A DNA stretch of 64,000 nucleotides from Eledone cirrhosa (Eukaryota). The notes beneath the pieces were generated by a model. The model saw nothing but the letters and a program-made list of their open reading frames with translations. It searched no databases and was not told the origin of the DNA. A program made the translations under genes and the position numbers. Shown piece by piece: positions 686 to 58,889 of the stretch. The stretch covers positions 49,166,001 through 49,230,000 of the forward strand of contig OZ024746.1 of NCBI GenBank assembly GCA_964016885.1, given 5' to 3'. Each line of letters opens with the position of its first letter. Within the stretch, counting starts at the first letter, position 1.

Positions 686-3600
686 TTCTTTATTAGCCAC
701 AGGGGCACAAAAGAAGGGGACAAATACAAAGGGGGAAGTTTCCATACAATAAAAACGTGTAAAATGTTATCACAAATGGAATTTAAAAATTAGTCGATTT
801 TCCCCAATAGAGGGAGACAGTTTATATGGGTAACACATACCCCCGAAAAAAAATGTGAAACCCTCATCTCCAGGAGTACGAAGAGCTTGTACTCCTTTCC
901 TCTCCTCCTCCTTTTCCTCAACCTACAGGCTGATATAGAGAGAAGGCCCATTTACTCGGGCCATTCTCGCCACTTTCACCCACCTTTCATAAAACTTGCT
1001 GGGGTACAGCACCTCTCTCTCCATCCTGATTCTTCTTCCAAAGTGGTATTTGAAAAAAAGAATCAGTTGTTGGCCGGAGAGAAAGGTGTCTGACCTCAGT
1101 CCTTTCAACCTTGTCCACCATACAACCTCTTTCGCCATAGCTATCACACAAAGGAAAACCGCCTCTCCTTCGTTTTTGAAGGAGGGTGGCGGTTTGATCA
1201 TGATAATGGACTCGGTGGTCAACTGGATTGGTCCCACCCGCGACAATAGTCGTTCTACATAGCCCCACAGGTCAGTGACGCCCGGGCAGTGTATGAATGC
1301 GTGCGCGACGGTTTCTTCGTCTCGCACGCACCTCGGACAGATCTTTTTTGCAGGGTCCCTGCCCGGGCGCCCATGTCTGTAGAGCTTGTCTCGAACTGGT
1401 AGAGCTCCTCGGTAGCACTGCCAGGCCAGGGACTTTTGGAAGTTGTCCATCGGTCCCGGGCGGAAGGTCCTACCGAACAGACTGGCCAGTTCATCTTCCT
1501 CTACGCCTAGAGTTTCACCGAGCGCGTCGTCGCACTTGCTGCGGACCAACCCTCTATAGAATGACGAAGTGGAGTCTCCACTGATCGCCGGGTCCGCCTG
1601 CCAGAGGGCTGTGAGCGGCTGAGCACATTTGATGTGCCAGTCGCCCAGTTTCCTCGGTCTTTGCTTGACCCAGGACTGCAGCTCGGTCAGCGAGACGAGT
1701 CGTGGGAAGGCTCGCCTCACGAACGGGGCCCACACCGGTTGTCCGGTGAGGAATACGTAGAGATGCCGCAGCCTGAGCGCGTGTTTGCGCATCGTCAACC
1801 ACGGCATCCCCAGCACCTTAGAAGGGTGTTGGCAGCAGATGGATCTTCTCACCAAAGGAGCCCGCCTCTTCCAAAAGAATCGGAAGAGCGCGCGCTCCAT
1901 TTTGGCGAGCGTTTTGGCTGGACAAGGCACGACGGTCAAGCGGTAGTAGATGGCGGACGCTATAAAAGTGTTCGCCACCTCCGCTCGACCTTTCAAGGAT
2001 AGTTTACACTCGGCCCACTTCTGGGTGAGTGCAAACACCTTGGCCGTCACTTCGTTCCAGTTCTTCTCCACCTGGAGGTCCGGACCAAACCAGACACCGA
2101 GCAGCTTTACCGGTCCTTCCGTCCAGCGTCCGACGACGCCATCGGAAGGCATCGGTCTGCCTCTCCACGATCCGAGTTTCAAACCGATGTACTTGTCCCG
2201 GTTCAGCTTCGCTCCTGTGAGACTTTCGTATTCCTTTAGTAAGGTGCCGACTTCCTCTATTTGCGAGGTGCTCGACACCGTTACTGTCACGTCGTCGGCG
2301 TAGGCCGACGCCGCTTTCCGCAGTCCCGGTTCCAGAGGGATGCCCTGCAATAGCTCCAGCTTCCGCAGTAGTGGCTCGAGAGTCAGTACGTACAGAAGGG
2401 AGGAGAGAGGGCATCCCTGTCGAATGGATCGCGTAATATGGAACGGCTCCGAGAGGTAGCCGTTCACCTTGACCCTTGAGCAGATGTTGCTGTTGTGCAT
2501 TGCAGCAATCCAGACCCTGAACACGGGTCCGAAGCCTGCCGCCTCGAGCACCGCATCCAGGTAACGATGGTCAACCCTATCGAAAGCCTTAGACTGATCC
2601 AAGTTGATCAGGGCCCCACCGAAGCCGGGTTTACACCCTACCCTCTCTATGATGTATCGCATGAGGTGGAGGTTGTCGTGTATGGACCTGGTCGGGATTG
2701 CGCATGTCTGCGCTTCTCCCACCAGGTTCTCGACGACAAACGCCAGCCTCTTTGCCAACATCTTGGCCAAAATCTGTAACTCTGTGTTTAGCAGAGTTAT
2801 GGGCCGGAAGTTGCCTATGTCATCCCCCTTATTCTCGTCCTTCCTGATTAGTGTGACCACGTCCCCGGTTACAGAACTGGGAATTCTCCCGTTCTGTTGC
2901 CAGTTGCAGTAGACCGCTTCCAGGAGACCGGAGAATAAGTCCGGCATTGCTACGTAAAATTCGTAGGGTAGACCGTCGAGACCTGGAGATTTGCGTTTGA
3001 CGCATTGGCTCAGCGCGTCCCCTATCTCAGTGGCTGAAATCGGCTTTTCGCAGAACTTTGCCTCGCTGTCCGAGAGTCGCGGTAGGCCGTCGAGGTATGG
3101 ACCGAAATCCATAGCCTCTCCCGGCGCGCCGCTCCCCCCGAACAGCCGAGCGAAGTGCCGCTGAAAAGCCGCACACATCTGCTTCGGCTCACGTTCACGC
3201 GTCCGTTTTGGTCCCTCAAAGAGCGAATCGTGGACTTGTTGCCACTTTTTGCCTCCGTCACTCGGGCCCAGCTAACAGCTTTGGCTCCCTCGTTTCCCAG
3301 AGCACGTATTTTGCTTCTGACAACGCAGCCCTCGTGCTTTGCGTCGAAGAACTGATCCAAGGCCGTTCTCGTTGCTAGCACGCTGGCTACGTTGCCACTT
3401 CTAATTGCCTCTTCTACTTTATCTACCAGTTCCTTCTCGGTTCTATTTCTATCTAACGCTAATTCTTTACTAAAAACTATCGAGTCTAATCTAACTGCCC
3501 TCTTGAGAGAGTACCACCATCTGTTGTTGACAATGGCCCCTGTCAAGTGCTGTTTAACTAAAGTGCTAATCCGTCTACTGTAGGCTTTGCTTGTCGGTAA

Positions 3601-4254
3601 CGACAAGTTCAGCTTCCAGTAGCCGGGTCCTTGTCTATGGGTTCTATCAAGGTTGGCCATGCAGGTCACTAGTTTGTGATCTGAATAGGCAACCATGAAC
3701 ATTTGTGGACAGCTTAACATGTCCCTATCCTTATTTCTAACTAGAACCCTATCTAGGTACGATCTAGATGTTCCGCTACGATTACTCCACGTCCACATTG
3801 GCGCAGTCGGAAAATCTAGTCGATATCTATCGGCCAGGTCAAATCGGTCGATTAACTGTTTGAGGCTGTTACACCCCCCTTTATCGGGACATGCTCCCAC
3901 ATAGTCCCAACGTGCATCTAGGATTCCATTCCAGTCCCCCACTAAAAGCAAGGAGCGGGACGTTCCCAGAAAAGTCTCTAGACGTTTGAAGAAGTCTGGT
4001 CATGGGGGCCAGCTGTCGCTCGCCGTGGATCCTGGACTCGCAAATGGCTACCACATCCATACTGTGCGACCTGGGGTCGTTTAAGAGTTTGCCCTGTTTC
4101 CAGGGCATCCCCAGGCCGCGTACATTCACACATCCGACTCTTATATTGGCCATGTTGGTGCTGAAAAGTTAAAAGAGGAAAAGAGATCACTCACTCTTCG
4201 CCTCCTGGGGACCAGGCCGCACGATTTCCATGGGGGTGTTGGAGGGGTTGTCTG
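684..4254 (-). mobile_element. Tx1/L1-clade non-LTR retrotransposon copy A, 5'-truncated at the end of ORF1, with an internal deletion in APE
   Basis: APE motifs (GCVNVRGL, GDWN, SYLDR, SDH) and RT motifs (KSPGLDG, FRPITLLN, DQSKAFD, QGCPLS, YADD), plus a C-terminal CX2C-X7-HX3-C. The 3' end reads AATAAAGAAA then (TCTA)n, and (GATA)n lies on both sides. Confidence 0.95.
923..4153 (-). pseudogene. ORF2 (APE-RT) of copy A, broken into 3881-4153, 3022-3951 and 923-3178
   Basis: The three ORF pieces are collinear with ORF2 of copies C and E. There is a frameshift near 3190 and a deletion near 4004. Confidence 0.93.
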
Positions 4255-4298
<44 letters not shown>

Positions 4299-4299
4299 T

Positions 4300-5868
4300 A
4301 TTTCTTTATTAGCCACAGGGGCACAAAAGAAGGGGAAAAATACAAAGGGGGAAGTTTACATACAATAAAAACGTGTAAAATGTTATCACAGTTGGAATTT
4401 AAAAGTTAGTCGATTATCCCCAATAGAGGGAGACAGTTTATATGGGTAACACATACACCCGAAAAAAAATGTGCAACCCTCATCTCCAGGAGTACGAACA
4501 GCTTGTACTCCTCTCCTCTCCTCCTCCTTTTCCTCAACCTACAGGATGATATAGAGAGAAGGCCCATTCACTCGGGCCATTCTCGCCACTTTCACCCACC
4601 TTTCATAAAACTTGCTGGGGTACAGCACCTCTCTCTCCATCCTGATATCTTCTTCCAAAGTGGTATTTGAAAAAAAGAATCAGTTGTTGGCCGGAGAGAA
4701 AGGTGTCTGACCTCAGCCCTTTCAACCTTGTCCACCATACAACCTCTTTCGCCATAGCTATCACACAAAGGAAAACCGCCTCTCCTTCGTTTTTGAAGGA
4801 GGGTGGCGGTTTGATCATGACAATGGACTCGGTGGTCAACTGGATTGGTCCCACCCGCGACAATAGTCGTTCTACATAGCCCCACAGGTCAGTGACGCCC
4901 GGGCAGTGTATGAATGCGTGCGCGACGGTTTCTTCGTCTCGTGCGCGACGGCTTCTTCGTCTCGCACGCACCTCGGACAGATCTTTTTTGCAGGGTCCCT
5001 GCCCGGGCGCCCATGTCTGTAGAGCTTGTCTCGAACTGGTAGAGCTCCTCGGTGGCACTGCCAGGCCAGGGACTTTTGGAAGTTGTCCATCGGTCCCGGG
5101 CGGAAGGTCCTACCGAACAGACTGGCCAGTTCATCTTCCTCTACGCCTAGAGTTTCACCGAGCGCGTCGTCGCACTTGCTGCGGACCAACCCTCTATAGA
5201 ATGACGAAGTGGAGTCTCCACTGATCGCCGGGTCCGCCTGCCAGAGGGCTGTGAGCGCCTGAGCACATTCTATGTGCCAGTCGCCCATTTTCCTCGGTCT
5301 CTGCTTGACCCAGGACTGCAGCTCGGTCAGCGAGACGAGTCGTGGGAAGGCTCGCCTCACGAACGGGGCCCACACCGGTTGTCCGGTGAGGAATACGTAG
5401 AGATGCCGCAGCCTGAGCGCGTGTTTGCGCATCGTCAACCACGGCATCCCCAGCACCTTAGAAGGGTGTTGGCAGCAGATGGATCTTCTCACCAAAGGAG
5501 CCCGCCTCTTCCAAAGGAATCGGAAGAGCGCGCGCTCCATTTTGGCGAGCGTTTTGGCTGGACAAGGCACGACGGTCAAGCGGTAGTAGATGGCGGACGC
5601 TATAAAAGTGTTCGCCACCTCCGCTCGACCTTTCAAGGATAGTTTGCACTCGGCCCACTTCTGGGTGAGTGCAAACACCTTGGCCGTCACTTCGTTCCAG
5701 TTCTTCTCCACCTGGAGGTCCGGACCAAACCAGACCCCGAGCAGCTTTACCGGTCCTTCCGTCCAGCGTCCGACGACGCCATCGGAAGGCATCGGTCTGC
5801 CTCTCCACGATCCGATTTGCAAACCGATGGACTTGTCCCGGTTCAGCTTCGCTCCTGTGAGACTTTCG
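4300..5868 (-). mobile_element. Tx1-like copy B, 5'-truncated, nearly identical to the 3' part of A
   Basis: Aligns by eye with 684-2230 and carries a short tandem duplication near 4920-4960. (GATA)n lies at 4255-4298 and 5869-5900. Confidence 0.95.
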
Positions 5869-6115
5869 TAGATATATAGATAGATAGATAGATAGATATA
5901 TTTCTTTATTTACCATAAAGGCATAAACAGAAGGGACAAATACAAAGGGGGAGTTTACCTCCAATCGAGTAAAAAGGGTATAAAATGAAAATAATCGAAA
6001 ACAACCTCAAAAGGGAGGGGACGTGATGGGGGTTGCACACACCCCCGAAAAAGTGTGCAATCCTTTACCCGGGGAGCACCTTCTCCATGTGCTCCCCTCT
6101 CCTTCACTTCTTTAC

Positions 6116-9100
6116 CTACAGGATGGTATACAGAGAAGGCCCATTTACACGAGCCATTCTCGCCACTATCACCCACCTTTCATAAAACTGCCTGTGGCCA
6201 AGCAACTCTCTCTCCATTCTTATCCTTCTTCCGAATTGATATCGGAAGAAGTAGACCAGACTATGGCCAGAGAGGAAGTTGCCTGACCTCAGACCTTTCA
6301 ATCGTGTCCACCAAACAACCTCTTTCAACATGGCTATTACGCACAGAAAAACCGCCTTTGCTTCCTTTGTGAAGAGGGGAGGCGGCTTGATTGTCATCAT
6401 GGACTCGGCTGTCAATCGAATCGGCGCCACCCGCGACAGCTGTCGTTCGGCGTAGCCCCACAGATCATCCACGCCCGGACATTGCACCAATGCGTGCGCA
6501 ACGGTTTCTTCGGGACGCACGCATCTAGGGCAAATCTTTTTCGAGGGATCCCTGCCCGGGCGCCTGTGTCTGTAGAGCCTCTCTCGAACGGATAGAGCCC
6601 CCCGGTAGCACTGCCAGGCTAGTGACTTCTGGAAGTTGTCCATTGGTCCCGGGCCGAAAGTCCTACCGAACAGGCTGGCCAGTTCGTCCTCTTCGATGCC
6701 CAGCGACTCTCCAAGGGTGTCATCGCCCCTGCTAGCCACCAGCCCTCGATAGAATGATGAGGTGGATTCTCCACCGATGGCCTGCCCGCTTACCAGAGAA
6801 CCCTGAGCGCCTGGGCACACTCAGTGTGCCAGTCTTCCAGTTTTCCGGATCTTTGCTTGACCCAGGACTGCAGCTCGGTGAGCGAGACGAGTCTCGGAAA
6901 GGCTCGTTTCACCAACGGAGCCCACACCGGTTGACCAGTGAGGAATACCTGTAGGTGCCGTAGCCTTAATATGTGCCTACGCATCATCAACCACGGCATC
7001 CCCAGCCCTCCTTTCGAAGGTTGTTGGCAGCAGATGGATCTTCTCACCATAGGAGGGCGTTTCTTCCAAAGAAATTGGAAGAGCATGCGTTCTATGGGGG
7101 TGAGTGTTTCCTTAAGGCAAGGCACGACAGTCAGGCGGTAGTAAGTGACGGACGCTATGTAAATGTTCGCCACCTCCGCCCGACCTTTTAGGGACAGCTT
7201 ACACTTGGTCCATTTCTGGGTTAGTGCAAACACCTTGTTCGTAACCTCGTCCCAGTTCTTTTCCACCTGGAGGTCCGGTCCAAACCAGACCCCAAGCAAC
7301 TTCACCGTCCGGAGGCATCGGTCTGCCTCTCCACGTTCCGAGTTGCAGCCCGATGGATTTTTCCCGGTTCAGTTTCGCTCCTGACAACCTTTCGTAATCC
7401 TCTAGTAAGGTACCGATCACCTCGATCTCGGAGCCGGTCGATACCATTACTGTTACGTCATCGGCGTAGGCCGACACCGCTTTGCTCAATCCTGGTTCCA
7501 GGGGGATACCCTGCAACAACTCCAACTTCCTCAGTAAAGGCTCGAGAGTCAATACGTACAGAAGGGAGGAGAGAGGGCACCCCTGTCAAATGGATCGTGT
7601 GATTTCGAACGGCTTCGAAAGGTAGCCGTTCACCTTGATCCTAGAACAGATGTGGTTGCTATGTAAGGCAGTGATCCAGCCTCTGAAAACAAGACCGAAC
7701 CCAGCCGCCACTAGCACCGCATCCAGGTAACCATGGTCGACCCTATCGAAGGCCTTAGACTGATCCAAGTTGACCCGAAGCCGGGTTTGTTGCCAACCTT
7801 CCCTATGATGTATCGCATGAGGTGGAGGTTATCGTGAATGGACCTGGATGGGATAGCACATGTCTGCGCATCTCCCACCAGGCCACCCACGACAAGCGCC
7901 AACCTCTTTGCTAACACCTTGGCCAAAGTCTTTAACTTTGTGTTTAGCAGGGTTATGGGCCGAAAATTATTTATATTATCCCCCTTGTTCTCGTCCTTCG
8001 TCACCAGCGAGACTACGCCCTTGGCTACAGAACAAGGAATTCTCCCGTTCTGCTGCCAATTGCAGTAGACCGCTTCGAGGAGTTCGGAGAAGAAGACCGG
8101 CATTGCTAAATAAAGTTCGTAAGGTATACCATCGAGACCTGGAGATTTGCGTCTGCTGCATTGGCTCAGCGCATCCCCGATCTCATCAACCGAGATTGGT
8201 CCCTCGCAGGACTCTGCCTCTTCGCTCGAGAGACGCGGCAGGCCGTCGAGGTATGGACCGAAATCCATGTCCCCGCCCGGACCCTCGCCTTCCCCGAATA
8301 ATCGGGCAAAGTGCCTTTGAAAGGCCTCGCATATCTACTTAGGCTCCCGGATCACCCGTCCATCCTCGTCTTGCAAAGACCGGATGGTGGATCGATTTCC
8401 ACTCTTAGCTTCTGTCACGCGGGCCCAGCCAACGGCTTTGGCCCCCTCATTACCTAGAGCACGTATTTTACTTCGAATTACGCAGCCTTCGTGCTTTGCA
8501 TCGAAAACTGGTTCAAGGCCGTCTTCGATGCCAGCACTCTGGCCACATCTTCTCTCTTGATTGCCTCTTCTAATTTACCTGTTAATTCTTTCTCGTTTCT
8601 ATTCCTATCGGCAGCTAACATCTTGCTATAACTTATTGATTCTGTTCTAATCTCTCTTTTGAGAGATGCCCACCATCGGTTGTTGACGATTGCACCCGTC
8701 AACCTCTCCTTAACTAATCTGCTAATCCGGTTTCTGCAAGTCTCTTTTGCCGGTAAAGATAAATTAAGTTTCCAGTAACCGGGACCCTGTTTATGTGTTT
8801 TCTCGAGATTGACTACGCAGGTCACTAATTTGTGATCCGTATAGCCAACCGTGAGCATTTCTGGACAGCTTAATATGTCCCTATCCTTACTTCTAACTAA
8901 GAATCTATCTAAGTACGATCTAGATTGACCACTGTGGTTCGTCCAAGTCCAGGTTGGCACAGTTGGAAAATCTAGTCGATATCTATCGACCAAGTTAAAA
9001 CGGTCGAGTAACCCCTTGAGGCTGTTACACCCCCTCTATTAGGACATGCTCTTGCATAGTCCCAACGTGCATCTAGGATGTCATTCCAATCCCCCGATAG

Positions 9101-9511
9101 AAACAGGGAACGCGATGTTCCCAGAAAAGTCTCCAAACGCTGGAAGAAGTCGGGCCGTTCAGCTCCGAAAGGGGAGTAGACGGCGACCAGTCTCAAGGCC
9201 GCACCTTCACTACTGCCAACGTCTAGCACCAACAAACGACCCTCCGTGTCCGAGTGAACAACCTGTACGGCAAGACCCAGGTGTTTTTCCAGCAGTACGA
9301 CAACCCCACCCCCACCTCCAGGTTGACAGAGAGATGCATGCACCTCAAAGTCATCGAAGGTAGGAGCCAGCTGCCGCACGACGCTGATCCGAGTCTCACA
9401 GATAACCATTACATTTATACCACATGACCTGAGGTCATTTAGAAGCTTTGCTTTCTTCCAAGTTGAGCCCAGGCCACGTGCATTCAAACATCCTACTCTT
9501 AACACATCCAT
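6116..9511 (-). pseudogene. ORF2 (APE-RT) of copy C, multiple frameshifts
   Basis: Pieces 8972-9511, 8478-8993, 7711-8268, 7586-7768, 7199-7552, 6790-7305 and 6116-6820 carry APE and RT motifs in order. Confidence 0.92.
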
Positions 9512-9544
9512 GTGGGCGGCAAAGCCAAAGGAGGGTGTAGAGAC

Positions 9545-11424
9545 CTACCTTTCTGCTTCCCGGGGTTCGGGTCGCACGACTTCCATGGGGTCGGGGGTGT
9601 TGGGTGAAGGGGTGTCTTGTGGTGGTGTGGGGTCGTCAGTGTGTGGTGGGGTTGGGGTGTTTGGAGTTGTGTTGGGGAGGGGAAGGGGAGGGGGAAAGCT
9701 TTTTAGTAGGACGCGGTTTATGGGTTTGACAGAGGGTGGTCCTACGTCCTCCTTAAAATCCTTTTTTAGTTTTTGGTAGAGGTTCATTGGGATCTTTATT
9801 AGTTTTCTGAAGAAACAAAGTTTACACCTTCGGTTTGTACCGAAGGATTATTGTTTGAGTTCATTTAATTTATTATTGTTTCTGTTGATGTAAGTATAGT
9901 GTAATGTCTTTTTTTCGGATGGTGTGAGTGATTCGAAGAGGGGAGGGGCAGGTTTGGTTTTGTTTGTTGGTGGAGGGGTGTTTTGTGTTTTGTTGGATTG
10001 TGTTGACATTTGGGTAGGGGTTGTTTGGCCTTGTGTGTTTTGCACATGTTTTCTTTTTTTCCTTTTAATCTGTCTGAAGGACTCCGTTTCTTCCTCCGAA
10101 TTCGTTGGGTTATCTTCAGTGTTGGAGGGAAGAGGTATGTTTGCTGGTAATGTTTCCGTGTTGGTTTTCTTTGTGGGGGAGATGGATGTCACTATGTTAG
10201 ACTGTGTTGTGTGTTGTGGCTGCGGTGGTTGTGTTGTTTTATTGAGTGAGGGGTTGGGTGGTACTGTATTTTGTTTTTGGGTAATGTGTTGTGACTGTTT
10301 GTGTTGTGGTGGTGGTGTAGTTTTACTGAGGGACGGGTTGGTTGGGACTGAGTTTTGTTGTTTGTTTATCTGTTGTGGTGGTGGTGGAGCTGGTGTTGGT
10401 AGCAGGGTTTTCTTTTTGTTGAGTTGGGGACAAGCCGCCTTCAGGTGCCCTCTGCCTGCACAGATATGACAGGACGGCCTTCTCCCCTCCACGCTAATGT
10501 TTATATACCCATGGCCCTCTAATAGGATTCTGTCGGGTATTTGGGCGATGCGCTCAGGCTTCATTTGCACTACAAGTTCTATACCTGTTCCACTGAACGC
10601 ATTGCCTGTGGTTTTCCCAATGGAAATCACGTTGTCATTCGCTGGATCGATGAAGCCAGCTATGAGCCAGCAGTAGTCCACATCTGGCATCATTGCATCC
10701 AGCCATATGCGCTGAGTTCTTTTACCCATATAAGATGGATAAAAGGTAAAATTTTTCGAACGAATCGGTGACAAAGCACATTTTTTTGCCGCCGATTCGT
10801 TCTTCATAACAATCGCTAGGTTTCCATACAGTCTGTCTTTTCTTATGAAAGTGGTTTCATTAAGTACTTCTGTAAGTACTGCTTTGATTTCTGTTTGTGT
10901 TGGCTGTTCAGGTTTTTTAGAAATGTGCGGAAAACGACCGTCCGACTTTCAATGTCTTTGGTGAGTTCTTGAGGCATTTTTACCGATAAAATACCATTTT
11001 CTCCTTCAGTTATGTATTGTTTGGCGTCTGTAATTCTTTGTGCCACATCTGAAATATTTTCAGGTATATATGTCAAAGATTTATTTGTTGTTTGTGCAAA
11101 TGAAATATTATTGGTGTTGACTTTGTCGTCTGCTTTGCTTTCTGTTATGATGTTGTTTTCAAATGTTATTTTTGTGTTTGTCGTGTCTTTGTTTGTGGTA
11201 TTAATATTGTCATGCAATTATTCAAATTTTTTTTTTTCGTTGTTGGAATCAATGTCCAGATTTGTGTTTTCGTCATTTTTCTCCGCAGATTCGTCTGTTT
11301 TTATTTTATTTTTTCTTTCCTTCTCCATGACGTTAGTTGGGAAGGAAGGGGGGACTAAAGCGTGCGAGCTTACAACTCTTACCGCTGTCCCCCCACCACT
11401 ATTTTCCTTAGCTTCGTTTAACAT
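9545..11424 (-). pseudogene. ORF1 (gag-like, single CCHC knuckle, P/T/Q-rich C-terminus) of copy C
   Basis: CHICAGRGHLKAAC fits CX2CX4HX4C. The FYPSYMGKRT block matches FYPTYMGRRT in copy E. The ORF is split by stops and frameshifts. Confidence 0.85.
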
Positions 11425-11660
11425 TTCTGTCAGACGATTGAAATTTTTTATGCCACAAAATGTTTAAAAACAGGTTTTTCACCCCTGGGAGGGGCAAAGA
11501 TGAGCTGACCCACCGCCTGACAGTTCAGACGGGGGGTCAAGCTACACAATAGTATCAAAATTAAAATTGAACTTACAAAATTTCCGCAATAAATTTGAAC
11601 AAAACTTCTGCGCGAATTGAATTACATCTGCGCTGTAGAACAGACGACAGCTAGATTAAT

Positions 11661-12491
<831 letters not shown>

Positions 12492-16338: not shown

Positions 16339-16558
16339 ATCTATCTGTCTTGGGATGGACACACGCGTGAAACTTGCTGAGTAAGTTCTGCTTAAATTTC
16401 TATAGAAATTCTTGACTGTAAACTTTCATTTTTGTACCATTTTGTAGAGGGACTGCCAGGTCAAATTTTGATCTGGTCAGTCTCTCAAAATATTCTACGC
16501 CTTTAGGCGAAATAGTTAACAAAAAGTTTTTTTTTTGAAAAGCTAACATTTTAAAAAA

Positions 16559-18376
16559 ATGGCTGAAGCTTCTTCACCAAAATTCGAAGGAAGAAAGGGG
16601 AAGATATACTTACAGCTTCCCCCTGCCACTGTCATAGTAGCAGATTTCAAAGACAAAGGTCACCCAGAGGAAGGATTTTCTCCACCTGCTGACCGACAAC
16701 TTGACGTTGCCATGGCAACAAACCAAACAACCAGCGGCACCAGCAACAACAACAACAACAATGCTACGAATGAAAATAACACCAACAACAATAACAATAA
16801 CAACAACAACAAGACCAATAACTGTGATAACAACAACAATGATAACAACAACACCACCAACTACAACAGCAACACAAACAAGGAAAAGGACTCCTTCGCT
16901 CAGACGGCAAGGAAAACTCTGGACTATCTGCCAGTAGATATAACCAAAGCGAAGGAGCTACTGGCAAATGCCAACAATTACATAATGTACGGGGAAAATG
17001 GATCATTTTCGATGCACTCCCCCCCCCCCGGAACTAAAAAGCCAGAGACTCCTAAACACTGTCATGTTTAGGACAGTCTAAAACAAAAGCAAAAAACCAG
17101 CTCAACCATCACAGAGTTAGATAGAGCTGGTTTTAAAAGATGTCATGAAAGACATCATATTCATTCAGAAGGATAGACTCTACGGGAGTCTATCCATTCT
17201 CATGAAGGACAGACACAGCAGTGAAACTGTCCATAAAACCAATTACATCCACCGCATACACCTTCTACCCTACGTACATGGGTAGAAGGACACACAAAAT
17301 AAAAATTCACACCATCCTGCCGATTATGGACATATGGTGGGTTTTAACAGGTTTCCTGAACCTAGACGATGACACACTAATATCCATGGGAAAGGCATCG
17401 GGTGACGCGTTCAGTTGAATGAGCCTCGAACAAGTATTTCAAATGAGGCCCGAAAGGATCACCCAGATCCCTGAACGCGTCATACTGGATGATCAAACGT
17501 TTATCAACATTACCGTTGAGGGTGGGCGGCCCTCGTGTTACCTCTGTGGAGCTAGAGGTCACCTGAGGTCTGGTGGTCACCTGAGGTCACCTGGTCCTCA
17601 ACTTAATAAGAAAACCCCAATCCTGCCTACACCACCAACAACTGCACAACCAACACAATCACCACAACCACCACTACAAAAACAACAACCACAGCTCAAA
17701 CCAAAACAAAACAATGTCCAACACATCCCCCCACTCAATAAAAACAATTTCCAAAACACCCGCACCGCAAACACAACCCGAAAATCTACCCCTCCCCTCC
17801 AACGCGGAAGATGACCCTCGTTCGTCGTCAGATGAGGAGGAGCACTTCCACACAATCAAAAGAAAAAAAGAAAACACACCTCAGACACACAAATGAAAGC
17901 AACCCCTCCCCAAAACATAACACTGACACCAACACAAAGAAGCACACAACAACAACAAACAAAAAACACCACACTAAAACAAAAACATGCATACACACAC
18001 ATAAACACAAGAAATAAAAAACTGCTAAACATTGTGTACAACAACAATTTAGTAAAAACCCAAGGGCCTAACTTCACCCAGGCAGGGGATTTCCCCCACC
18101 TCAAAATGATTTAGGCCCCAGAGGACACATATAAAACACTAAAAAACAACTTTAAAGAGGACGTGCCCCCCCCCCCCCCCCCTGCGTCGGGCCCATTAAC
18201 CGCGTCCTCCTAAAAAACTACCCCACGCCTCCCCAAACACCCACACAACTCCAAACACCCCAACCACACAACACACTGATGCCCCTACACTTCCACAAAC
18301 TACCCTTCCACCCAACAACCCATCCCCCACCCTCATGGAAATTGTGCAGCCCGATACCCGGGAGGCAGAGAGGTAA
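16559..18376 (+). pseudogene. ORF1 of copy E (Asn-rich N-terminus, CCHC knuckle disrupted by a short duplication)
   Basis: Pieces 16559-17071, 17221-17418 and 17419-17814 (CYLCGARGHL). The C-terminus MEIVQPDTREAER* ends at 18376. Confidence 0.85.
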
Positions 18377-18400
18377 GTGCCTTTTCTCTTCCCCACCAAC

Positions 18401-21400
18401 ATGGCTATGCTAAGAATAGGCTTTCTAAATGCGCGTGGCCTGGGCTCAACGTGGAAGCAAGCAATGCTTCTAAATGACCTCAGGTCACAACGTATAGATG
18501 TGATGGTTATTTGCGAGGCCCGGATCAGCAACGTGCGACAGCTGACCCCCACCTTTGATGACTTTGAGATGCACGCATCTCTCTGTCAGCCCGGAGGTGG
18601 GGGTGGGGTTGTCGTTCTGCTGCAAAAACATCTGGGTCTCGCAACACAGACGGTACAATTAGACCCGGAGGGTCGACTAGTGGTTCTGGACCTTGGCAGT
18701 GGTGAAGGCGGAGCGTTTAGGTTGGTAGCCGTCTACGGCCCTTTCGGGTCAATGCGGCCAGACTTCTTCCATCGTCTGGAGACTTTTCTAGGGACTCCCG
18801 CTCCTTGCTATTAGTGGGGGACTGGAATGGTATCCTAGATGCACGCTGGGACTACGTAGGGGCATGTCCCGATAAAGAGGGGTGTAATAGCCTCAAAGGG
18901 TTAATCGGTCGATTTGACCTGGCCGATAGATATCGACTAGATTTTCCGATTGCGCCAACCTGGACTTGGGCAAACCGTAGCGGATCATCTAGGTCGTACC
19001 TAGATAGGTTCTTAGTTAGAAATAAGGATAAGTACTTTTTAAGTTGTCCAAAAATGGTTGGCTATTCAGACCACAAGTTAGTGACGTGCATGGTCAACCT
19101 TGACAGAACGCAGAGACAGGGACCCGGTTACTGGAAGCTCAACTTGTCCTTACCGGCAAGTAAGGCTTACAGAAACCGGATTAGCACTTTAGTTAAGGAG
19201 CGGTTGACGGGCGCCATCGTCAACAGCAGGTGGTGGGGATCTCTCAAAAGAGAGATTAGAGTAGTCTCTATAGAATTTAGTAAGGAGTTAGCCTCAAATA
19301 GAAATAGGAAAGGGAGTTGGTAGATAGTGTAGAAGAGGCAATTAGAAGCGGCGACGTGGCCAGAGTGCTAGCGTCGAGAACGGCCCTCGGCCAGTTCTTC
19401 GACACGAAACACGAAGGCTGCATCGTCCGAAGCAAAATACGTGCTCTGGGAAACGAGGGGACTAAAGCTGTTAGCTGGGCCCGCGTGACAGAAGCCAAAA
19501 GAGGGAGTAGATCCACTATCCGGTCTTTGCTAGACCAGGATGGACGGGTGATCCTTGAACCCAAGCAGATGTGCGAGGCTTTTCAAAAGCACTTTGCCAG
19601 ATTATTCGGAAGGGGCGGGGAGCCGGTTAGGGAAGTGGACTACGGTCCATACCTCGACGGCCTGCCGCGTCTCTCGGACAGAGAGGCGAAGTCTTGCGAG
19701 GAGCCGATTTCAGCGGCTGAGATAGAGGACGTGCTGTGTCAATGCGGCAAACGCAAATTCCCGGGTCTCGATGGTCTTCCATACGAACTATATTTAGCTA
19801 TGCCGGACTTGTTCCCCGATCTTCTCGAGGCGGTCTACTGCAACTGGCAACGGAACGGGAGAATTCCCTGTGCTGTGACCAAGGGCGTAGTCACGCTAGT
19901 GAGGAAGGACGAGAACAAGGAGGACGATATAAATAATTTCCGGCCCATAACTCTGCTAAATACAGAGTTACAGATTTTGGCCAAGGTGCTAGCAAAGAGG
20001 TTGGCGCTTGTCGTGGCCAACCTGGTGGGAGATGCGCAGACATGTGCTATCCCGTCCAGGTCCATCCACGGCAACTCCACCTCATGCGATACATCATAGA
20101 GAGGGTTGGGAACGAACCCGGCTTTGGTGGAGCCCTGATCAACTTGGATCAATCTAAGGCGTTCGATAGGGTCGTCCATGGTTACATGGATGCGGTGCTA
20201 GCGGCGGCAGGCTTCGGACCTGTTTTCAGGGGCTGGATCAATGCCATGCACAGCAGCTGCATCTGCTCTAGGGTCAAGGTGAACGGCTACCTCTCGGAGC
20301 CCTTCGAAATCGCGCGGTCCATCCGACAAGGGTGCCCTCTCTCCTCCCTTCTGTATGTAATGACTCTAGAGCCACTGCTGCAGAAGTTGGAGTTGTTGCA
20401 GGGCATCCCGTTGGAACCGGGATTGCGGAAAGCAGTGTCGGCCTACGCCGATGACGTAACAGTAATGGTGTCGACGACCTCGGAAATCGGGGTGAATGGC
20501 ACCTTACTGGAGGAGTATGAAAGGTTTACAGGGGCTAAGCTGAATCGGGACAAGTCGATCGGTCTGCAACTCGGCACGTGGGGGTGGAAGATCGATGCCC
20601 TCCGATGACGTCGTCGGGCGCTGGACGGAGGGCCCGGTGAAGTTGCTCGGGGTCTGGTTCGGACCAGACCTCCAGGTGGAGAAGAACCGGGATGAGGTAA
20701 CGAACAGGGTGTTTGCACTGACCCAGAAGCGGGCCGAGTGCAAACTGTCCCTGAAAGGTCGGGCGGAGGTGACGAACACTTATATAGCGTCCGTCATCTA
20801 CTACCGCCTGACCGTTGTGCCTTGCCCCAGGGAAACGCTCGCCAAAATGGAGCGCGCACTCTTCCAATTCCTTTGGAAGAAGCGGGCTCCTATGGTGAGG
20901 AGATCCATCTGCTGTCAACACCCTTCCAAAGGAGGGCTGGGATGCCGTGGTTAATGATACGTAAACACGCATTAAGGCTACGGCACCTCCAGGTATTCCT
21001 CACCGGTCAACCGGTGTGGGCCCCCTTTGTGAGGCGAGCCTTTCCCAAACTCGTCTCACTCACCGAGCTGCAATCCTGGGTCAAGCAAAGACCGAGAAAA
21101 CTGGGCGCCTGGCACACCGAGTGTGCCCAGGCGCTCACGGCTCTCTGGCAGGCGGACCCGGCTGTCAGTGGAGAATCCACCTCGTCATTCTATAGAGGGC
21201 TGGTGGTTAGCAGGTGCGTCGACGCCCTCGGAGAAGCCCTAGGCATGGAGGAAGACGAACTGGCCAACCTGTTCGGTAGGACATTCAGCCCGGGACCCAT
21301 GGATAACTTCCAGAGGTCCCTGGCCTGGCAGTGCTACCGAGGGGCTCTGCCCGTTCGAGAAAGGCTCTACAGACACGGGCGCCCGAGTAGGGACCCCTCG

Positions 21401-21826
21401 AAAAAGATCTGTCCCAGATGCGTGTGCGACGAGGAAACCGTTGCACACGCATTGGTACACTGCTCGAGCATTGCCGATCTGTGAGGCTATGTCGAACAAT
21501 TGATGTCAAGGGTGGCACCGATCCGGTTGACCACCCAGTCTATTGTAACGATCAAGCCGCCTCCCCTCTTCAAAAACGAAGGAGAGGCGGTGTTTCTGTG
21601 CGTAATAGCCATGGCGAAAGAGGTTGTATGGTGGACGCGTCTGAAAGGACTGAGGTCAGACACCCTTCTCTCTGGCCAACAACTGGTCCATTTCTTCCGA
21701 TATCATTTCGGAAGAAGGGTCAGGATGGAGAGAGAGGTGTTGCACCCCAGCCGTTTTTATGAAAGATGGGTGAAAGTGGCGAGAATGGCCCGTGTGAATG
21801 GGCCTTCACTCTACATCAGACTATAG
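18401..21826 (+). pseudogene. ORF2 (APE-RT) of copy E, multiple frameshifts and one stop
   Basis: ATG at 18401 in ccaacATGG context. APE and RT motifs run across 18377-21826. Confidence 0.92.
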
Positions 21827-22442
21827 GTGAGGAAGATGAAAGATCAAAGGAGCACCCCCTCTCTGTGCTCCTGACGAGAAGGGTTGCACACTTTTTTTCG
21901 GGTGTGTGTGCGACCCCCCAAGGCGCCTCCTCCCTATTGAGGATTTTGTTATAAAATTTATTTTGTTATATTTTATTTTATTTTTATATTTTGTTATTGC
22001 CTCCTCCTTATTGAGGACGCCTTTTTATGTAAACGCCCCCATTGTACTTTTTGATGCCCTGGTGGCAAATAAAAAGAAATTTATCTATCTATCTATTTAT
22101 CTCTTTCTCTCTCTTCACACGGCCACTATTACTATTGACTACTTTCTTTCAGAGCTTCAAAAGCATGTTCGTACACCTCCCGTTTCCTGGATCATAACGT
22201 GCAGTAGAAATGTCAACGTTTGCCACGGATTTATATATCATTCAATACTGAAAGTAAGAGAAATTTGTCCTTCAACTAAATTTTGCTACTGAATACTTTC
22301 ATGCAATAATTGATAGTTAATATAACTATTAATAATTCTAGGATTGCATCCAAAATACTAACAAGTCAAATATGTAAAATTCCAGAGCAGACACAGATAT
22401 TCGCTTCAATACAACACACGTAAATGGGTACCTTCAATCTAT

Positions 22443-44799: not shown

Positions 44800-45062
44800 G
44801 GAGCGCCTACTCTTTCACTTCTTGTGTAAATGACTCGTTCCATTTGCCAAGCGGCCCATCTGCTGCCAGAAGACTTTGTGCGGAGGGCTGGGTATACCGT
44901 GACGGATGATGCGCAAATATACGCTGAGACTACGGCATCTGAAGATATTCTTAAATGGTGAACAGGTCTGGTCACCGTTTGTGAGACACGTCTTTCCGTA
45001 GCTCGGCTCCTTGACTGGCATGCAATCCTGGGTCAAGTGAAAACCGAAACTGGGTGCCAGGC
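44800..45062 (+). mobile_element. Old internal fragment of the same Tx1-like ORF2
   Basis: Recognisable match to 20845-21110, for example ccatctgctgcc...ggagggctggg and gcaatcctgggtcaag...gaaactgggtgcc. Confidence 0.7.
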
Positions 45063-45821
45063 ATCTTATTATTATTGTTGCTGCAGTTGCTGTTTTCATC
45101 AATATTGTCATCACTATCTTCATTATTATTCTGCCCTTGTGGCAAATAAAAGATTCGATTTATCATAACTATTATTATTAAATGGCAAGAGACAAATAGT
45201 AGCTTCTAAGATTTATTATATATAAATAATAAAATACATAATTACTTGAATGTTGTCTTTGGGGTTAACAAAATTGTTTCTCTGATAATATATTGTCTTA
45301 ATCTGCAAGATATAACTCCTGATGGAATCACCAATGTGGCGTGTATTCAATAAAGACTGACAATATAAACTAAAATGTTGTTTTTATATAAATATGGATG
45401 ATTTACTTGTCGACTAGAATGTATTACTTTATTCGCAAATACTAAAAGAACAAAATGCCAATACCTTTTATCCAATTTCCATACAAACCGCTATAAAAAT
45501 ATTTGACATTTTTTATGATAAATAAACAGAAAAAATCTCATATAAAAAACATTCCACGAAAGATGGTTTCTGGGGTCGCTCGGCCTACTAGAAATAGCAG
45601 TAGCCAAATTGAATTAAAACTGCATCCTCGTCTTCTACCATATCTGAAAATTGTAAGAAAATTGTAAGAACACGTGAGATATTCTACCTTAAAATATACA
45701 AAAATATAGGAACGTTATGATCAGAGATTTGCTTGACCAACACTCATTCTGGACCTACTCTTGTGTTTAAAATACAAGTCTGTATCTCTCTCTCTCGCTC
45801 ACTCTCTCTCTCTCCCTCTCT

Positions 45822-49666: not shown

Positions 49667-50332
49667 GTAAATAAATTATCGATAATCTGAATTTCGGCCC
49701 ACGAAATAACGAAACACAATCTTCGAAATGAGTGGGAAAGGGCTCAATAGTTTGGATAAACCAGAGCTATAACTATCGTTTAAATACCAACACACGGAGA
49801 CAATGCTTAAAATCACTCGCACAACCGAAAAAAACGAGCAGGAAAATTCGGGTCAGACAAATAATAATATAAATTAATGAAAAATCTTTACCCGGACCCG
49901 CTAGAATGATGGTAAATTCCAGCTTTTTGGATTCTGCGGTTCCTAAATCAGTTACCGTCAGCTTACATAAAAAATATTCGGCTACTGGCAGAAAGATGAA
50001 CGAGGAAAACTACTTTCTCAACAGGCATTTCGTTCGAATATACAGAAGAATCCGTTACTAAATCCATGTGGGGTTTAGCAAGGGAGGGAACCCCTATATT
50101 AGGCGAATAAATTCGGCAGTGTATATATTTGTAAAAATACAAAATATTTATGTATATATATATTTATGTATTAGTTTTGCGAGGTTTTTTTTATATGAAA
50201 TCGTGTGTCGAAACAAATATTGTTATACTTGGGGAGGGTCATATTTGTGTAATATTGCCAGAATTAATAACGGAACATACTCACTGTTTGGTTGGTTTTC
50301 GCTTCTCGCTTCTGTGTCTTTTATATCAATAG

Positions 50333-53130
<2,798 letters not shown>

Positions 53131-54480: not shown

Positions 54481-55316
54481 TTATTTTTTTTTTGGGGGGG
54501 GGGGTATTCTTAATTAATTTTCCGTATCAAATTTTACATATACTTCGTACTAGCTTTTATGTAGCTTGCACTAGAACTTTTGTATCGTGGCGGCACCCTT
54601 AGAGATAGTATTAGTATTCTTTTTCGGGACTCTGAATTATTATTTCGTATTAGTTTACTTTTTTGCACTGCGTGGTTGCTGGCCGTGTGCCTGGGGTAGA
54701 AACCTTTATTTATTATTTCGTGGTAGTTTCTTTAGTATTTTGGCCCCTCACTTGTTGACCCGTCACCGTAAGATATACTCGGTTTATTACTTATACCTCT
54801 TAAAAGGGTCTCATTATAATTCCGTCCCACCTAGTATATCTTTCTTTAGCCTAGCAGTACCAGTGAGAGACTTAGGTCGTAGTAACCAGAAATTGTTTAT
54901 TTTTTTTTTTTACATTTAATTGCTTTTTAACACTCGGTATTTTTCTATACATTTACCCCATATTGTTCTACTTATTGTTTCGACTTCCTCCCCCTCCCCT
55001 TCCCTCGTATCTTCTTTGACCTCACGCCCAGCTGTAGTCAGCACTATCAACGCATGAATGGGTCTCCTCCACCCCCTCTCCCTCTTTCTCCTACTGGCAG
55101 GTTCAGCTACCCCTTCCCTCCACAAATTGCCATCGTAGAATTATTATGTCCCAACAACAAACTTTTGACCAATCCTTGTGACAATCACTTTTACCATATA
55201 TGGAATTACCCCTTGAGAAGCTCGGCTATTCAAATACCAGGATAAAAATGTTCATTTAGTCCAGAATTAGCCGTCGAAACGGCTTGAGCTCAGCTGTTGG
55301 GGTCCTACTCGTTCCT
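54481..55316 (+). repeat. 5' pseudo-LTR of PLE-2
   Basis: Near-identical to 58015-58849. Confidence 0.9.
55208..55303 (+). ncRNA. Hammerhead (U3-A8 variant) in the 5' pseudo-LTR of PLE-2
   Basis: acccc TTGAGAA gct cggcta...tagccg tc GAAA cggct tgagctc agctg TT ggggt. Confidence 0.6.
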
Positions 55317-55543
55317 ATTACCCACTCTACTAACCTAAGTATTGAGTACTTTTTGTGCGTTATGGTCCACCTGGTTCCTTACCACATTTCCTCCGTTATC
55401 TAGCTCCTATTCCCGTAGTAGAGCACTTTCCGACCCTACCACGCCATATCCAGACTTTTCCGCTAAGCTCAAGTTCTTTCACCCGCACCATCGACTTCTC
55501 TACCAAGAACATCCCAGTCCCACCGAAAAAACTTTAGCTTCGG

Positions 55544-57649
55544 ATGCTCACGCAAAAAATCGATCTATTTGCGAAAAGACTTAGATGGAGAACTTTTTTC
55601 TACGACAGATATTGCGACAATCAGGACTTCGGTACCAAGGAGAGATTCGGATTTATTACCTACAAATCTCCCCCTCCGTACCCTATGCTCTCACCCTTCG
55701 AGAATGACCTTTTCCAACTGGTCAAGAAGATTAAATTCAAACCCAGACACAACCGATTCCTACAAAAACTCCGTAGCAACTTAACAGAGTATGATAACAC
55801 CAATGACATCATGGTGCACTCGGATAAAACTGGTAACCTCTACTTTGTCAACCCCGACAGATACCACACACTGATCAGGAGCAGCCTAAACTCCACCTAT
55901 AAAAAGGCTAACCACTCATGCATCGAGGACATACATCGAGATGGACAACAAATTACCTCCAGCCTCGGGGTCGCCGACCGCACGGAAGCCCTAGACCCAC
56001 GGACACCCTACTTCACACTGAAGGACCACAAATCCGATTTCGACCGTAAACCTTCTATCAGGCTTATAAACCCAACGAAGTCCGACATAGGGAGAATTAG
56101 CAAAGAAATCCTAGACCGCGTGATACCAAAAGTTAAGCAACACGCCCGACTTAGCCTATGGGTCAACACCCAGGAAGTAATCTCATGGTTCAGCAATATG
56201 GAGGAAAAACGAGACACTAAATTCATCCAGTTTGACATAGAGAGTTACTATGCTTCAATCACCTTACCACTACTTACGGCTGCCTTGGACTTCGCCGAAG
56301 CACTTGTGCCCATCACCGACCAGGAAAGAAACATCATCCTCCACGCCAGGAAGACAGTCTTACTCTTCGCCAACTCCAAATGGATAAAGAGAGCTCCCGA
56401 CTCACCCTTCGACGTCAGCATGGGCGCGACGGATTCGGCTGAGGTCACAGATCTTATAGGATTATTCCTAATAGCCAAACTCACCGATATGCTTCCTGCA
56501 TTAGATGGTGGATTGTACCGTGATGATGGGCTCCTTACCCTTAAAGGGTACAACCCCAGTAGTACAGATCGGGTCCGCAAACAATTAATCAGCTTCTTCC
56601 GCGACTGGGGATTTAAAATAACCCTACAAAGGTCGCTGACCCGAGTAAACTTCCTGGACGTTACGCTTGATCTCGATAATGATCTGTACTACCCATACAG
56701 GAAACCTAACGACAACCTGCACTACATCCACCGCCAGTCAAACCATCCTAGGAACATCACCAATAACCTGGTTAAAAACATCTCCCTTCGCATATCCCAT
56801 TTGTCAGCTAATGAGCAGATATTCGATAAACATGCACCTTATTACAATCAGGCCCTCAAGCAGAGTGGTTTCCGGGAGGAAATATCCTACTGTCCAGCTC
56901 CCATTAGCGGAACCAGCAGGCGACACCGCCGCTCACGCAATGTAACATGGTTCAATCCTCCCTACAACGCCGAGGAGACAACTCCTATCGGGAAAATCTT
57001 CTTTAGGCTCATTGAAAAACACTTCCCACTACAACACCGCTACCACAATATAATTAACAAAAATACCATCAAACTCTCTTACAGCACTACACCAAACTTT
57101 GCACAAAACATCGTCTCCTCTAACAACAAAAAACTCAACCCCTATGGAAGAAATAACCTAAATAGCTGTGGAGAGCCGACCAGGAGGTGCAACTGTCCTG
57201 ATGGATCCATTTGTCCCCTCGACAACAGATGCAGAGATCGTAATGTGATCTACCAGTGCAACGTGAGGACGGACACCTCCAACAAAGCTGATATAGGATT
57301 AACCGCATGTGACTTCAAGACCCGGCTATACCAACACAGACATACCTTCCGAAACCCGGCCCGGCGTCACGCCACTACACTTTCGGGCCACATATGGGAC
57401 CTCAAGGATAACAACATTACCTATGATCTCACTTGGAGCTTACTGTCCAGAGCCAACTCTTACACGGGAGGACGCCGTCCGTGCAATTTATGCTCGGAGG
57501 AAACTTTACAAATGTTGTTTTCGACGGACCAACTCCTAAACAAGAAAGATGAACTGGTTACTGCATGTAAACACAGATTGCGTAGGACTTACCTCGCCCT
57601 CAAACCCCATAATGACCCGGGGGGGGGGGGGGGTAGACTAGGGCTATAA
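55544..57649 (+). CDS. PLE-2 RT + GIY-YIG endonuclease; the frame extends upstream through an in-frame TAG at 55535-55537
   Basis: Motifs SDKTGN, RLINP, QFDIESYY, SMGA, YRDD, NFLDV and VIY...ADIGLT..FK.R..H. The upstream in-frame FSTKNIPVP looks like a PLE N-terminus. Confidence 0.92.
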   Translation: MLTQKIDLFAKRLRWRTFFYDRYCDNQDFGTKERFGFITYKSPPPYPMLSPFENDLFQLVKKIKFKPRHNRFLQKLRSNLTEYDNTNDIMVHSDKTGNLYFVNPDRYHTLIRSSLNSTYKKANHSCIEDIHRDGQQITSSLGVADRTEALDPRTPYFTLKDHKSDFDRKPSIRLINPTKSDIGRISKEILDRVIPKVKQHARLSLWVNTQEVISWFSNMEEKRDTKFIQFDIESYYASITLPLLTAALDFAEALVPITDQERNIILHARKTVLLFANSKWIKRAPDSPFDVSMGATDSAEVTDLIGLFLIAKLTDMLPALDGGLYRDDGLLTLKGYNPSSTDRVRKQLISFFRDWGFKITLQRSLTRVNFLDVTLDLDNDLYYPYRKPNDNLHYIHRQSNHPRNITNNLVKNISLRISHLSANEQIFDKHAPYYNQALKQSGFREEISYCPAPISGTSRRHRRSRNVTWFNPPYNAEETTPIGKIFFRLIEKHFPLQHRYHNIINKNTIKLSYSTTPNFAQNIVSSNNKKLNPYGRNNLNSCGEPTRRCNCPDGSICPLDNRCRDRNVIYQCNVRTDTSNKADIGLTACDFKTRLYQHRHTFRNPARRHATTLSGHIWDLKDNNITYDLTWSLLSRANSYTGGRRPCNLCSEETLQMLFSTDQLLNKKDELVTACKHRLRRTYLALKPHNDPGGGGGRLGL

Positions 57650-58014: not shown

Positions 58015-58845
58015 TTATTTTGGGGGGGAGGGGGGGGGGATTCTGAATTAATTTTCCGTATCAAATTTTACATATACTTCGTACTAGCTTTTATGTAGCT
58101 TGCACTAGAACTTTTGTATCGTGGCGGCACCCTTAGAGATAGTATTAGTATTCTTTTTCGGGACTCTGAATTATTATTTCGTATTAGTTTACTTTTTTGC
58201 ACTGGGTGGTTGCTGGCCGTGTGCCTGGGGTAGAAACCTTTATTTATTATTTCGTGGTAGTTTCTTTAGTATTTTGGCCCCTCACTTGTTGACCCGTCAC
58301 CGTAAGATATACACGGTTTATTACTTATACCTCTTAAAAGGGTCTCATTATAATTCCGTCCCACCTAGTATATCTTTCTTTAGCCTAGCAGTACCAGTGA
58401 GAGACTTAGGTCGTAGTAACCAGAAATTGTTTATTTTTTTTTTTACATTTAATTGCTTTTTAACACTCGGTATTTTTCTATACATTTACCCCATATTGTT
58501 CTACTTATTGTTTCGACTTCCTCCCCCTCCCCTTCCCTCGTATCTTCTTTGACCTCACGCCCAGCTATAGTCAGCACTATCAACGCATGAATGGGTCTCC
58601 TCCACCCCCTCTCCCTCTTTCTCCTACTGGCAGGTTCAGCTACCCCTTCCCTCCACAAATTGCCATCATAGAATTATTATGTCCCAACAACAAACTTTTG
58701 ACCAATTCTTGTGACAATCACTTTTACCATATATGGAATTACCCCTTGAGAAGCTCGGCTATTCAAATACCAGGATAAAAATGTTCATTTAGTCCAGAAT
58801 TAGCCGTCGAAACGGCTTGAACTCAGCCGTCGTGGTCCTACTCGT

Positions 58846-58849
<4 letters not shown>
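58015..58849 (+). repeat. 3' pseudo-LTR of PLE-2
   Basis: Near-identical to 54481-55316 and abuts (TA)n. Confidence 0.9.
58741..58836 (+). ncRNA. Hammerhead (U3-A8 variant) in the 3' pseudo-LTR of PLE-2
   Basis: Same motif, with GAAA cggct..agccg TC gtggt (GUC triplet, one stem I mismatch). Confidence 0.6.

Positions 58850-58889
<40 letters not shown>

Follow-up and report, generated by a model that had tools for sequence, protein, structure and literature searches.

The stretch of the Eledone cirrhosa genome analysed here (positions 49,166,001 to 49,230,000 of contig OZ024746.1; 64,000 nucleotides (nt), hereafter the window) contains five copies of one family of long interspersed nuclear elements (LINEs), lying between (GATA)n/(TATC)n repeats. 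Copies A, B, C and D are on the minus strand and copy E is on the plus strand, and all five are broken (Table 1). Copy E matches L120, a relative in which both open reading frames (ORFs) are open, at 91% over 5.8 kb. Intact relatives encode an ORF1 of ~590–640 codons, which includes a zinc knuckle, and an ORF2 of ~1,150 codons with an APE endonuclease, a reverse transcriptase (RT) and a zf-RVT domain. The end of ORF1 coincides with a 5′ splice-site-like motif, on which the initial annotation had built the proposal that the whole of ORF2 is a spliceosomal intron, its acceptor lying at the ORF2 stop and its phase being conserved by compensatory changes across three subfamilies. The comparisons described below indicate that the donor motif is apparently a real feature, conserved throughout the clade beyond chance and under nucleotide-level constraint. 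They refute the phase compensation, and they lead us to favour, tentatively, a binding site for the U1 small nuclear ribonucleoprotein (snRNP) that has no fixed acceptor.

The survey comprised 200 genomic stretches, all from the first 170 Mb of contig C1 of the 3.0 Gb genome, the last 100 being chosen for diversity. Among the first 160 stretches 125 were kept, and 35 without a near-complete element or an anchor were dropped; four of the last 40 were dropped for lack of an ORF2 end, and L364 for lack of a donor anchor. The stretches were grouped by tree, and groups are 69–97% identical in ORF2. They include, beside the clade found in the window (the GATA clade), an ATT sister clade (L361–L400; groups J, R, S and T) whose ORF2 is 69–78% identical and which inserts in (ATT)n, not (TATC)n; one young subfamily of this sister clade has many copies with an open 1,150-codon ORF2. 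The per-group comparisons, namely the joined frames and the 18-group motif alignment, were made on hand-picked subsets of each group, groups O, P, N and J2a are single copies, and counts across groups are not independent, as the groups are phylogenetically related.

All three GT dinucleotides claimed as donors are present in the window, at 18373 in copy E and at the positions given in Table 1 for copies A and C. For copy A, in which the donor had been read as A/GTGAGT (the slash marking the proposed splice junction), GTGAGT stands, but the preceding A is unlike its own subfamily, which has GG/GTGAGT in 14 of 14 copies. The junction k-mers proposed for E and A include bases private to the window copies. 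Beyond the window the donor at the ORF1 end is borne out in all 18 groups, distant sister families included. All 18 groups retain G/GTRRGT, even at only 69% DNA identity (group T deviates, with GTAATT). Positions −1 (G), +2 (T) and +6 (T) are identical in every group, +1 is G in 17 of 18 (in group T the two copies disagree), +5 G and −2 A are each found in 17 of 18, and positions +3 and +4 are always purines. None of the 18 flanking positions (−8 to −3 and +7 to +18) is invariant across the 18 groups, a contrast that is inflated and partly circular because the flanks were anchored on the motif and the groups are related, and that counts to this extent against reading the motif as a selected site. 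As a neutral baseline from the same groups, 24% of 119 four-fold and 36% of 45 two-fold degenerate sites of ORF2 are invariant. Genome-wide, 3,094 of 3,315 copies keep GTRRGT and, by a simple U1-complement score built on a consensus, the donor is the unique best U1 match among 266–380 GT sites in 13 of 20 elements.

The motif is found in phase 2 in groups E, C, F, G, I and S, in phase 1 in A, J and R and in phase 0 in K. It persists where it is not the stop codon (A, J, R and K), and in R, S and T alongside differing ORF1 tails; its retention in all three phases implies that it is more than stop context. In every phase-2 group the last arginine codon is AGG, never AGA. The conserved 5′ splice site expected of a U2-type intron is thus present. 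The spacer that follows is rich in pyrimidines (C+T 72–80% in 11 GATA-clade groups and 74% in J). A second AAG/GTAAGT occurs 295–324 nt downstream of the donor, in the endonuclease region, in R, S and T (L362, L371, L377 and L383). In subfamily K (L246–L251, L271, L272 and L280), ORF1 continues past the donor to a TAG that overlaps an ATA, which replaces the ORF2 ATG; ORF2 is open in L249, so that the subfamily has apparently multiplied with no AUG start for it.

The proposed acceptor shows no comparable conservation. The ORF2 stop of all five window copies is indeed the TAG claimed (ending at 21826 in E, and as in Table 1 for the others), and a second AG lies 7 nt upstream in A, D and E, as had been noted. 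An AG is present at the ORF2 stop, as TAG, in 16 of 18 groups; in S (0 of 5 copies) and T (0 of 2) it is absent, the stop being TAA in all seven, and both groups keep the donor. The acceptor is not, as had been supposed, conserved together with the donor, and the conserved 3′ AG of a U2-type intron is lacking. No GT follows the ORF2 stop in R, Jy and J2. Among ~270 AGs, the one at the ORF2 stop ranks 12th–27th in the ATT clade; in most GATA groups a competing AG lies 5–7 nt upstream of it. The pyrimidine-rich stretch, put forward as an acceptor signal, encodes the ORF2 C terminus, and its richness is explained by the protein sequence: it does not exceed a synonymous-codon null in any of eight copies (P 0.12–0.77). 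No YTRAY branch point (generic consensus, not host-trained) occurs at −50 to −19 in the same number of copies (8 of 8), so that neither a polypyrimidine tract nor a branch point beyond coding needs is found. Groups S and T have a T-rich CAG 159–181 nt past the ORF2 end in six of seven copies; similar T-rich YAGs occur in the 3′ untranslated regions (UTRs) of R, I, M and H, and the S/T site is not special. An acceptor above chance is not established, and the sequences suggest one that is weak and decoupled from the donor.

In silico, the donor–acceptor joins of E, C and A all run straight into a stop, in agreement with the initial annotation. This is not general in the family: over 20 AG-bearing groups, the joined frame meets an immediate stop in eight, a stop within 1–3 codons in six and a stop after 33–43 codons in six. 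The joins of H, M, O and P read on for 33–41 codons, and those of A2 and A3 for a median of 40 and 43 codons. The latter two refute compensatory phase conservation, since they combine an E/C-phase donor with the extra T downstream (8 copies). Window copy D carries an A2-type tail, and its subfamily is thus itself the counter-example. Because A nests within A2/A3 in the trees, the extra T arose first, uncompensated, and the one-base loss of A came later; this loss is a single event with about an even chance of hitting a stop. That the shift of A might be a private deletion was considered and rejected, the shift being subfamily-wide (14 of 14 copies). In the GATA clade, G-stop-GT closes each of the two ORFs and purines come next at ORF2; a regenerated stop is therefore likely without any selection on phase.

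Genomic copies lacking exactly the GT..AG interval were sought, and none was found among 6,505 ORF1 ends. Gapped patterns in which the ORF1 end was combined with the 3′ UTR detected no spliced copies (3,094 matches in the positive control), and a broader pattern over the 6,505 copies, which also covers the AG 7 nt upstream, gave 47 matches, none of them a junction: 46 have a GT inside the exon and one a donor point change, and the 20 that were read out are all unspliced. The spliced share is thereby bounded below ~0.05% for the groups covered by the pattern, outside which lie J, N, P and part of M. Searches for spliced copies of J and R, and of S with its alternative AG, also gave zero, with no denominators or positive controls of their own. 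Among the copies listed with a non-GT dinucleotide after the AG of the exon, 121 of 121 continue in local sequence, and large deletions in a 100-copy sample have other breakpoints, each unique and none at the donor. HAL1 is an ORF1-only element, and splicing had been suggested to seed HAL1-like copies; no amplified ORF1-only derivative was seen in the sampled copies, and, with no spliced genomic copy found, nothing shows such seeding here. ORF2 lesions shared among the 125 copies are scattered over subfamilies or found in tandem neighbours, and the family therefore looks cis-preferring. Because of this preference the absence of spliced copies has limited force for an RNA lacking ORF2, and a splice confined to the soma would leave no copies. 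Three read runs of unrecorded kind from one sample show a DNA-like depth over copy E that rises towards the 3′ end, with no 18372–21827 joint among the 15 listed of 270, and are uninformative on splicing, and a metagenome pattern scan gave 17 matches, none confirmed.

The explanation to which we give most weight, at somewhat less than an even chance, is that the clade-wide donor motif is a selected U1 snRNP binding site without a fixed acceptor. U1 would bind the motif at the end of ORF1 and, by analogy with the Arabidopsis element EVD, would suppress premature cleavage and polyadenylation, keeping the transcript full length; splicing would be at most occasional or incidental, to any available downstream AG. 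The AG closing ORF2 is probably nothing more than part of the TAG stop codon. The site would lie at the stop because G followed by TAA, TAG or TGA already matches most of the consensus, and because no part of the element's interior other than the spacer is non-coding. Several observations weigh against this explanation. U1 binding is an inference from the sequence, and the full-length-transcript step, drawn by analogy, is weak: between the donor and the ORF2 stop there are 0–2 AWTAAA in the 20 copies scored, leaving little downstream to protect, and most internal poly(A) signals are in ORF1, ~300 nt or more upstream of the donor. The donor of group T is weaker. Internal acceptors and donors are not depleted, and a depletion of internal splice sites was rejected, only C reaching P 0.01 among eight tests. 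Moreover, in the GATA clade the ORF2-stop AG ranks 1st–6th of ~260 and is followed by GT and a purine run; a stop falls within three codons in 14 of 20 donor-selected frames versus 7 of 38 other frames (19 groups); and three recent phase shifts (A, K and J2b) all land on short frames, for which the probability by chance is ~1 in 8. A U1 site leaves the acceptor rank and the short joined frames to inheritance and chance.

These same frames and phase shifts speak for a regulated intron running from the ORF1 stop to the ORF2 end and yielding an ORF1-only mRNA, perhaps in the soma only or hidden by cis preference, which we regard as possible though unlikely. The strongest donor in the element lies at the very point where splicing would leave ORF1 intact; TAG is present in 16 of 18 groups and is the top-ranked YAG in the GATA clade, the S and T groups that lack it have the T-rich CAG further on in six of seven copies, and the apparent cis preference weakens the genomic negative. 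With its junction at the stop, the spliced mRNA would evade nonsense-mediated decay in any phase. Drosophila copia provides a precedent, its whole pol region being spliced out (PMC5580714). However, not one spliced copy occurs among the 6,505 ORF1 ends and at least 11,380 ORF2 3′ ends, nor for J, R or the alternative AG of S, whereas human L1 has ~2% spliced copies, albeit ones that keep ORF2; the competing AG 5–7 nt upstream in most GATA groups, the lack of a pyrimidine excess and of YTRAY in eight of eight copies, and the YAGs like that of S/T in the 3′ UTRs of R, I, M and H also speak against it. The more specific form, in which a programmed, tissue-regulated intron gives an ORF1-only mRNA proof against nonsense-mediated decay, leaves no retrocopies for somatic or cis reasons and has had its acceptor turned over in S and T, is unlikely and slightly harder to credit.

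Ranked after both, and likewise improbable, is the absence of any role in RNA processing: the motif would reflect an inherited G-stop-GT at both ORF ends and would serve, with the spacer, termination and re-initiation at ORF2. The same G-TRR-GT pattern does end both GATA-clade ORFs, a join regenerates the stop when purines follow, the pyrimidine spacer ends in a constant CCAACATGG-like start context, the ORF2 start of K is an ATA overlapping the ORF1 TAG, and DNA bears no trace of donor use, 121 of 121 listed non-GT copies continuing locally. On the other hand, the motif persists in groups whose stop lies elsewhere and beside unrelated ORF1 tails, and AGG, not AGA, is the last arginine codon in all phase-2 groups. 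Very improbable, finally, is splicing of the donor to another partner, either an AG before the ORF2 ATG, giving an ORF1–ORF2 fusion, or an acceptor further downstream, in a host gene or a tandem copy. An AG does lie 9 nt before the ORF2 ATG in A, A2, A3 and G, and near the ATG in J2 and T, and copies are often in tandem; yet the mini-intron would measure only ~26–37 nt, is absent in 8 of 12 groups compared and would preserve the frame in A2 though not in A, and no such deletion is found among the 121 listed variants, although its product would retain ORF2 and be copyable in cis.

Table 1. Features of the five LINE copies in the window (copy letters as in the text; the slash marks the proposed splice junction).
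Feature	Position	Strand	Remarks
Copy E, near-full-length but broken LINE	16351..22080 (ends approximate)	+	Flanked by (TCTA)n/(TATC)n repeats
ORF1 of E	16559..18376	+	Frameshifted here; zinc-knuckle type; C terminus ...ER then TAA
5′ splice-site-like motif GAG/GTAAGT	18370..18378	+	Overlaps ORF1 stop; the conserved feature
Inter-ORF spacer of E	18379..18400	+	Pyrimidine-rich; runs to ORF2 ATG
ORF2 of E, proposed intron body	18401..21826	+	APE endonuclease, RT, zf-RVT; broken in copy E
ORF2 end of E, proposed acceptor TAG/GT	21802..21828	+	Competing AG 7 nt upstream; encodes C-terminal PSLYIRL
Two predicted 3′ UTR hairpins	21848..21916	+	Some pairs altered on both sides between subfamilies
AATAAA	22068..22073	+	Directly ahead of TATC tail
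Copy C	5905..11655 (ends approximate)	-	Donor AAG/GTAGGT, GT at 9548; ORF2 TAG ends 6116
Copy A	686..4254	-	5′-truncated just upstream of ORF1 end; endonuclease deletion; GT at 4194; TAG ends 923
Copy B	4299..5868	-	5′-truncated, A-type; TAG ends 4539
Copy D	11760..12416	-	5′-truncated, A2-type tail; TAG ends 11993

In the ORF2 of L168, the Pfam domains Exo_endo_phos, RVT_1 and zf-RVT all score above cut-off, and the best match of ORF2 in the PDB is human L1 ORF2p (E 4e-52), R2 proteins following at 2e-22. The ORF1 zinc knuckle, CX2CX4HX4C, is present in seven of seven aligned ORF1s, Pfam zf-CCHC being below cut-off in two of four ORF1s of intact relatives (E 0.0075 and 0.051); protein database searches found no ORF1 homologues. 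Type I ORF1p features are described in PMC5203782. The nearest database relatives show 37–70% identity and carry no family names. By its ORF2 domains, the element is a young, microsatellite-targeting LINE of L1/Tx1 type. It displays the target-sequence preference expected of Tx1-type elements: TATC follows 41 of 76 GATA-clade ends and ATT follows 32 of 39 ATT-clade ends, no end having been called in another 46 copies. The family is large and young, with 6,505 exact ORF1-end motifs and at least 11,380 ORF2-end motifs genome-wide, and both ORFs are open in 11 of 125 sampled copies. The two 3′ UTR hairpins show two-sided changes in 4 of 23 predicted pairs (10 related sequences) and are candidates for recognition of the RNA 3′ end by ORF2p. 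In copy C, the 9-nt loop of hairpin 1 (6080–6088, minus strand) is inverted relative to C copies sampled genome-wide, and its stem is intact.

Elsewhere in the genome the family forms arrays: G000:C1:423365374-423418069 is a head-to-tail array with ten ORF2 starts at ~5.84 kb spacing, and smaller arrays are common. In a recombinant subfamily comprising L091 and ~11 further copies, the ORF1 tail is A2-type and runs on into a tail and donor of E type; in L125, L190 and similar copies ORF2 groups with H and the 3′ ends are E-type. The remainder of the window contains an old fragment ~70% identical to the family ORF2 (44856–45063), an 823-nt direct repeat (98%; 54496–55318 and 58030–58851) flanking a 703-codon open frame (55538–57649) that has no Pfam match and possibly belongs to another retroelement, an 832-codon open frame with a weak RT match below cut-off (50062–52560) and a 510-codon open frame with a weak coiled-coil match (62229–63761).

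LINEs depend on a single transcript for abundant ORF1p and scarce ORF2p and have to escape splicing, so a strong donor kept clade-wide is unexpected. In the literature covered (titles and abstract openings, outside subscription journals, Repbase reports and supplements), no clade-wide donor at a LINE ORF1 stop is described, and neither a U1 site nor an ORF2-removing intron is shown for a LINE. The conserved donor is apparently a real and unreported variant; an ORF2-removing intron is unproven, and known L1 splicing and ORF1-only DNA deletions differ from it.

The Tx1-clade elements Kibi and Koshi have two ORFs, an APE endonuclease and an RT and insert into simple repeats (PMC4494074); their targets are (TC)n or (TTC)n, whereas here the GATA clade targets (TATC)n and its sister clade (ATT)n. 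TRE5-A.2 is an ORF1-only derivative that arose by DNA deletion and is mobilised in trans (PMC3159450). Like HAL1, it consists of ORF1 and 3′ UTR without ORF2, as the predicted spliced product would here, where no amplified derivative is seen. Human L1, an L1-clade LINE, likewise has internal donors and acceptors, and its SpIREs and SpORF2 events start in the 5′ UTR, keep ORF2 and remove the 5′ UTR or ORF1 (PMC5860796, PMC2896524); the spliced copies, ~2% of full-length copies, are called dead ends (PMC5860796). In the present LINE, by contrast, the donor is at the ORF1 end and clade-wide, and no spliced copy was found. In Drosophila copia the whole pol region is spliced out to give a gag-only RNA (PMC5580714). 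An intron over the whole enzymatic region would similarly give a short RNA for the structural protein here. Unlike this LINE, whose ORF1 has its own stop, copia is a long terminal repeat element with one ORF, in which splicing has been shown in RNA and is needed to end Gag. The closest parallel to a U1 site is the Arabidopsis Ty1/Copia element EVD, in which U1 serves splicing and also prevents the full-length RNA from terminating early (PMC5580714). EVD also has a conserved 5′ splice site after its structural ORF; it differs in having a short intron, a defined acceptor and a coupled early poly(A) site, whereas the LINE lacks a conserved acceptor and its ORF2 is poor in poly(A) signals. Should the donor be a true intron boundary, it would constitute a new on/off switch for retrotransposition; should it be a U1 site, it would represent a LINE that, like some copia elements, recruits the spliceosome in shaping its RNA.

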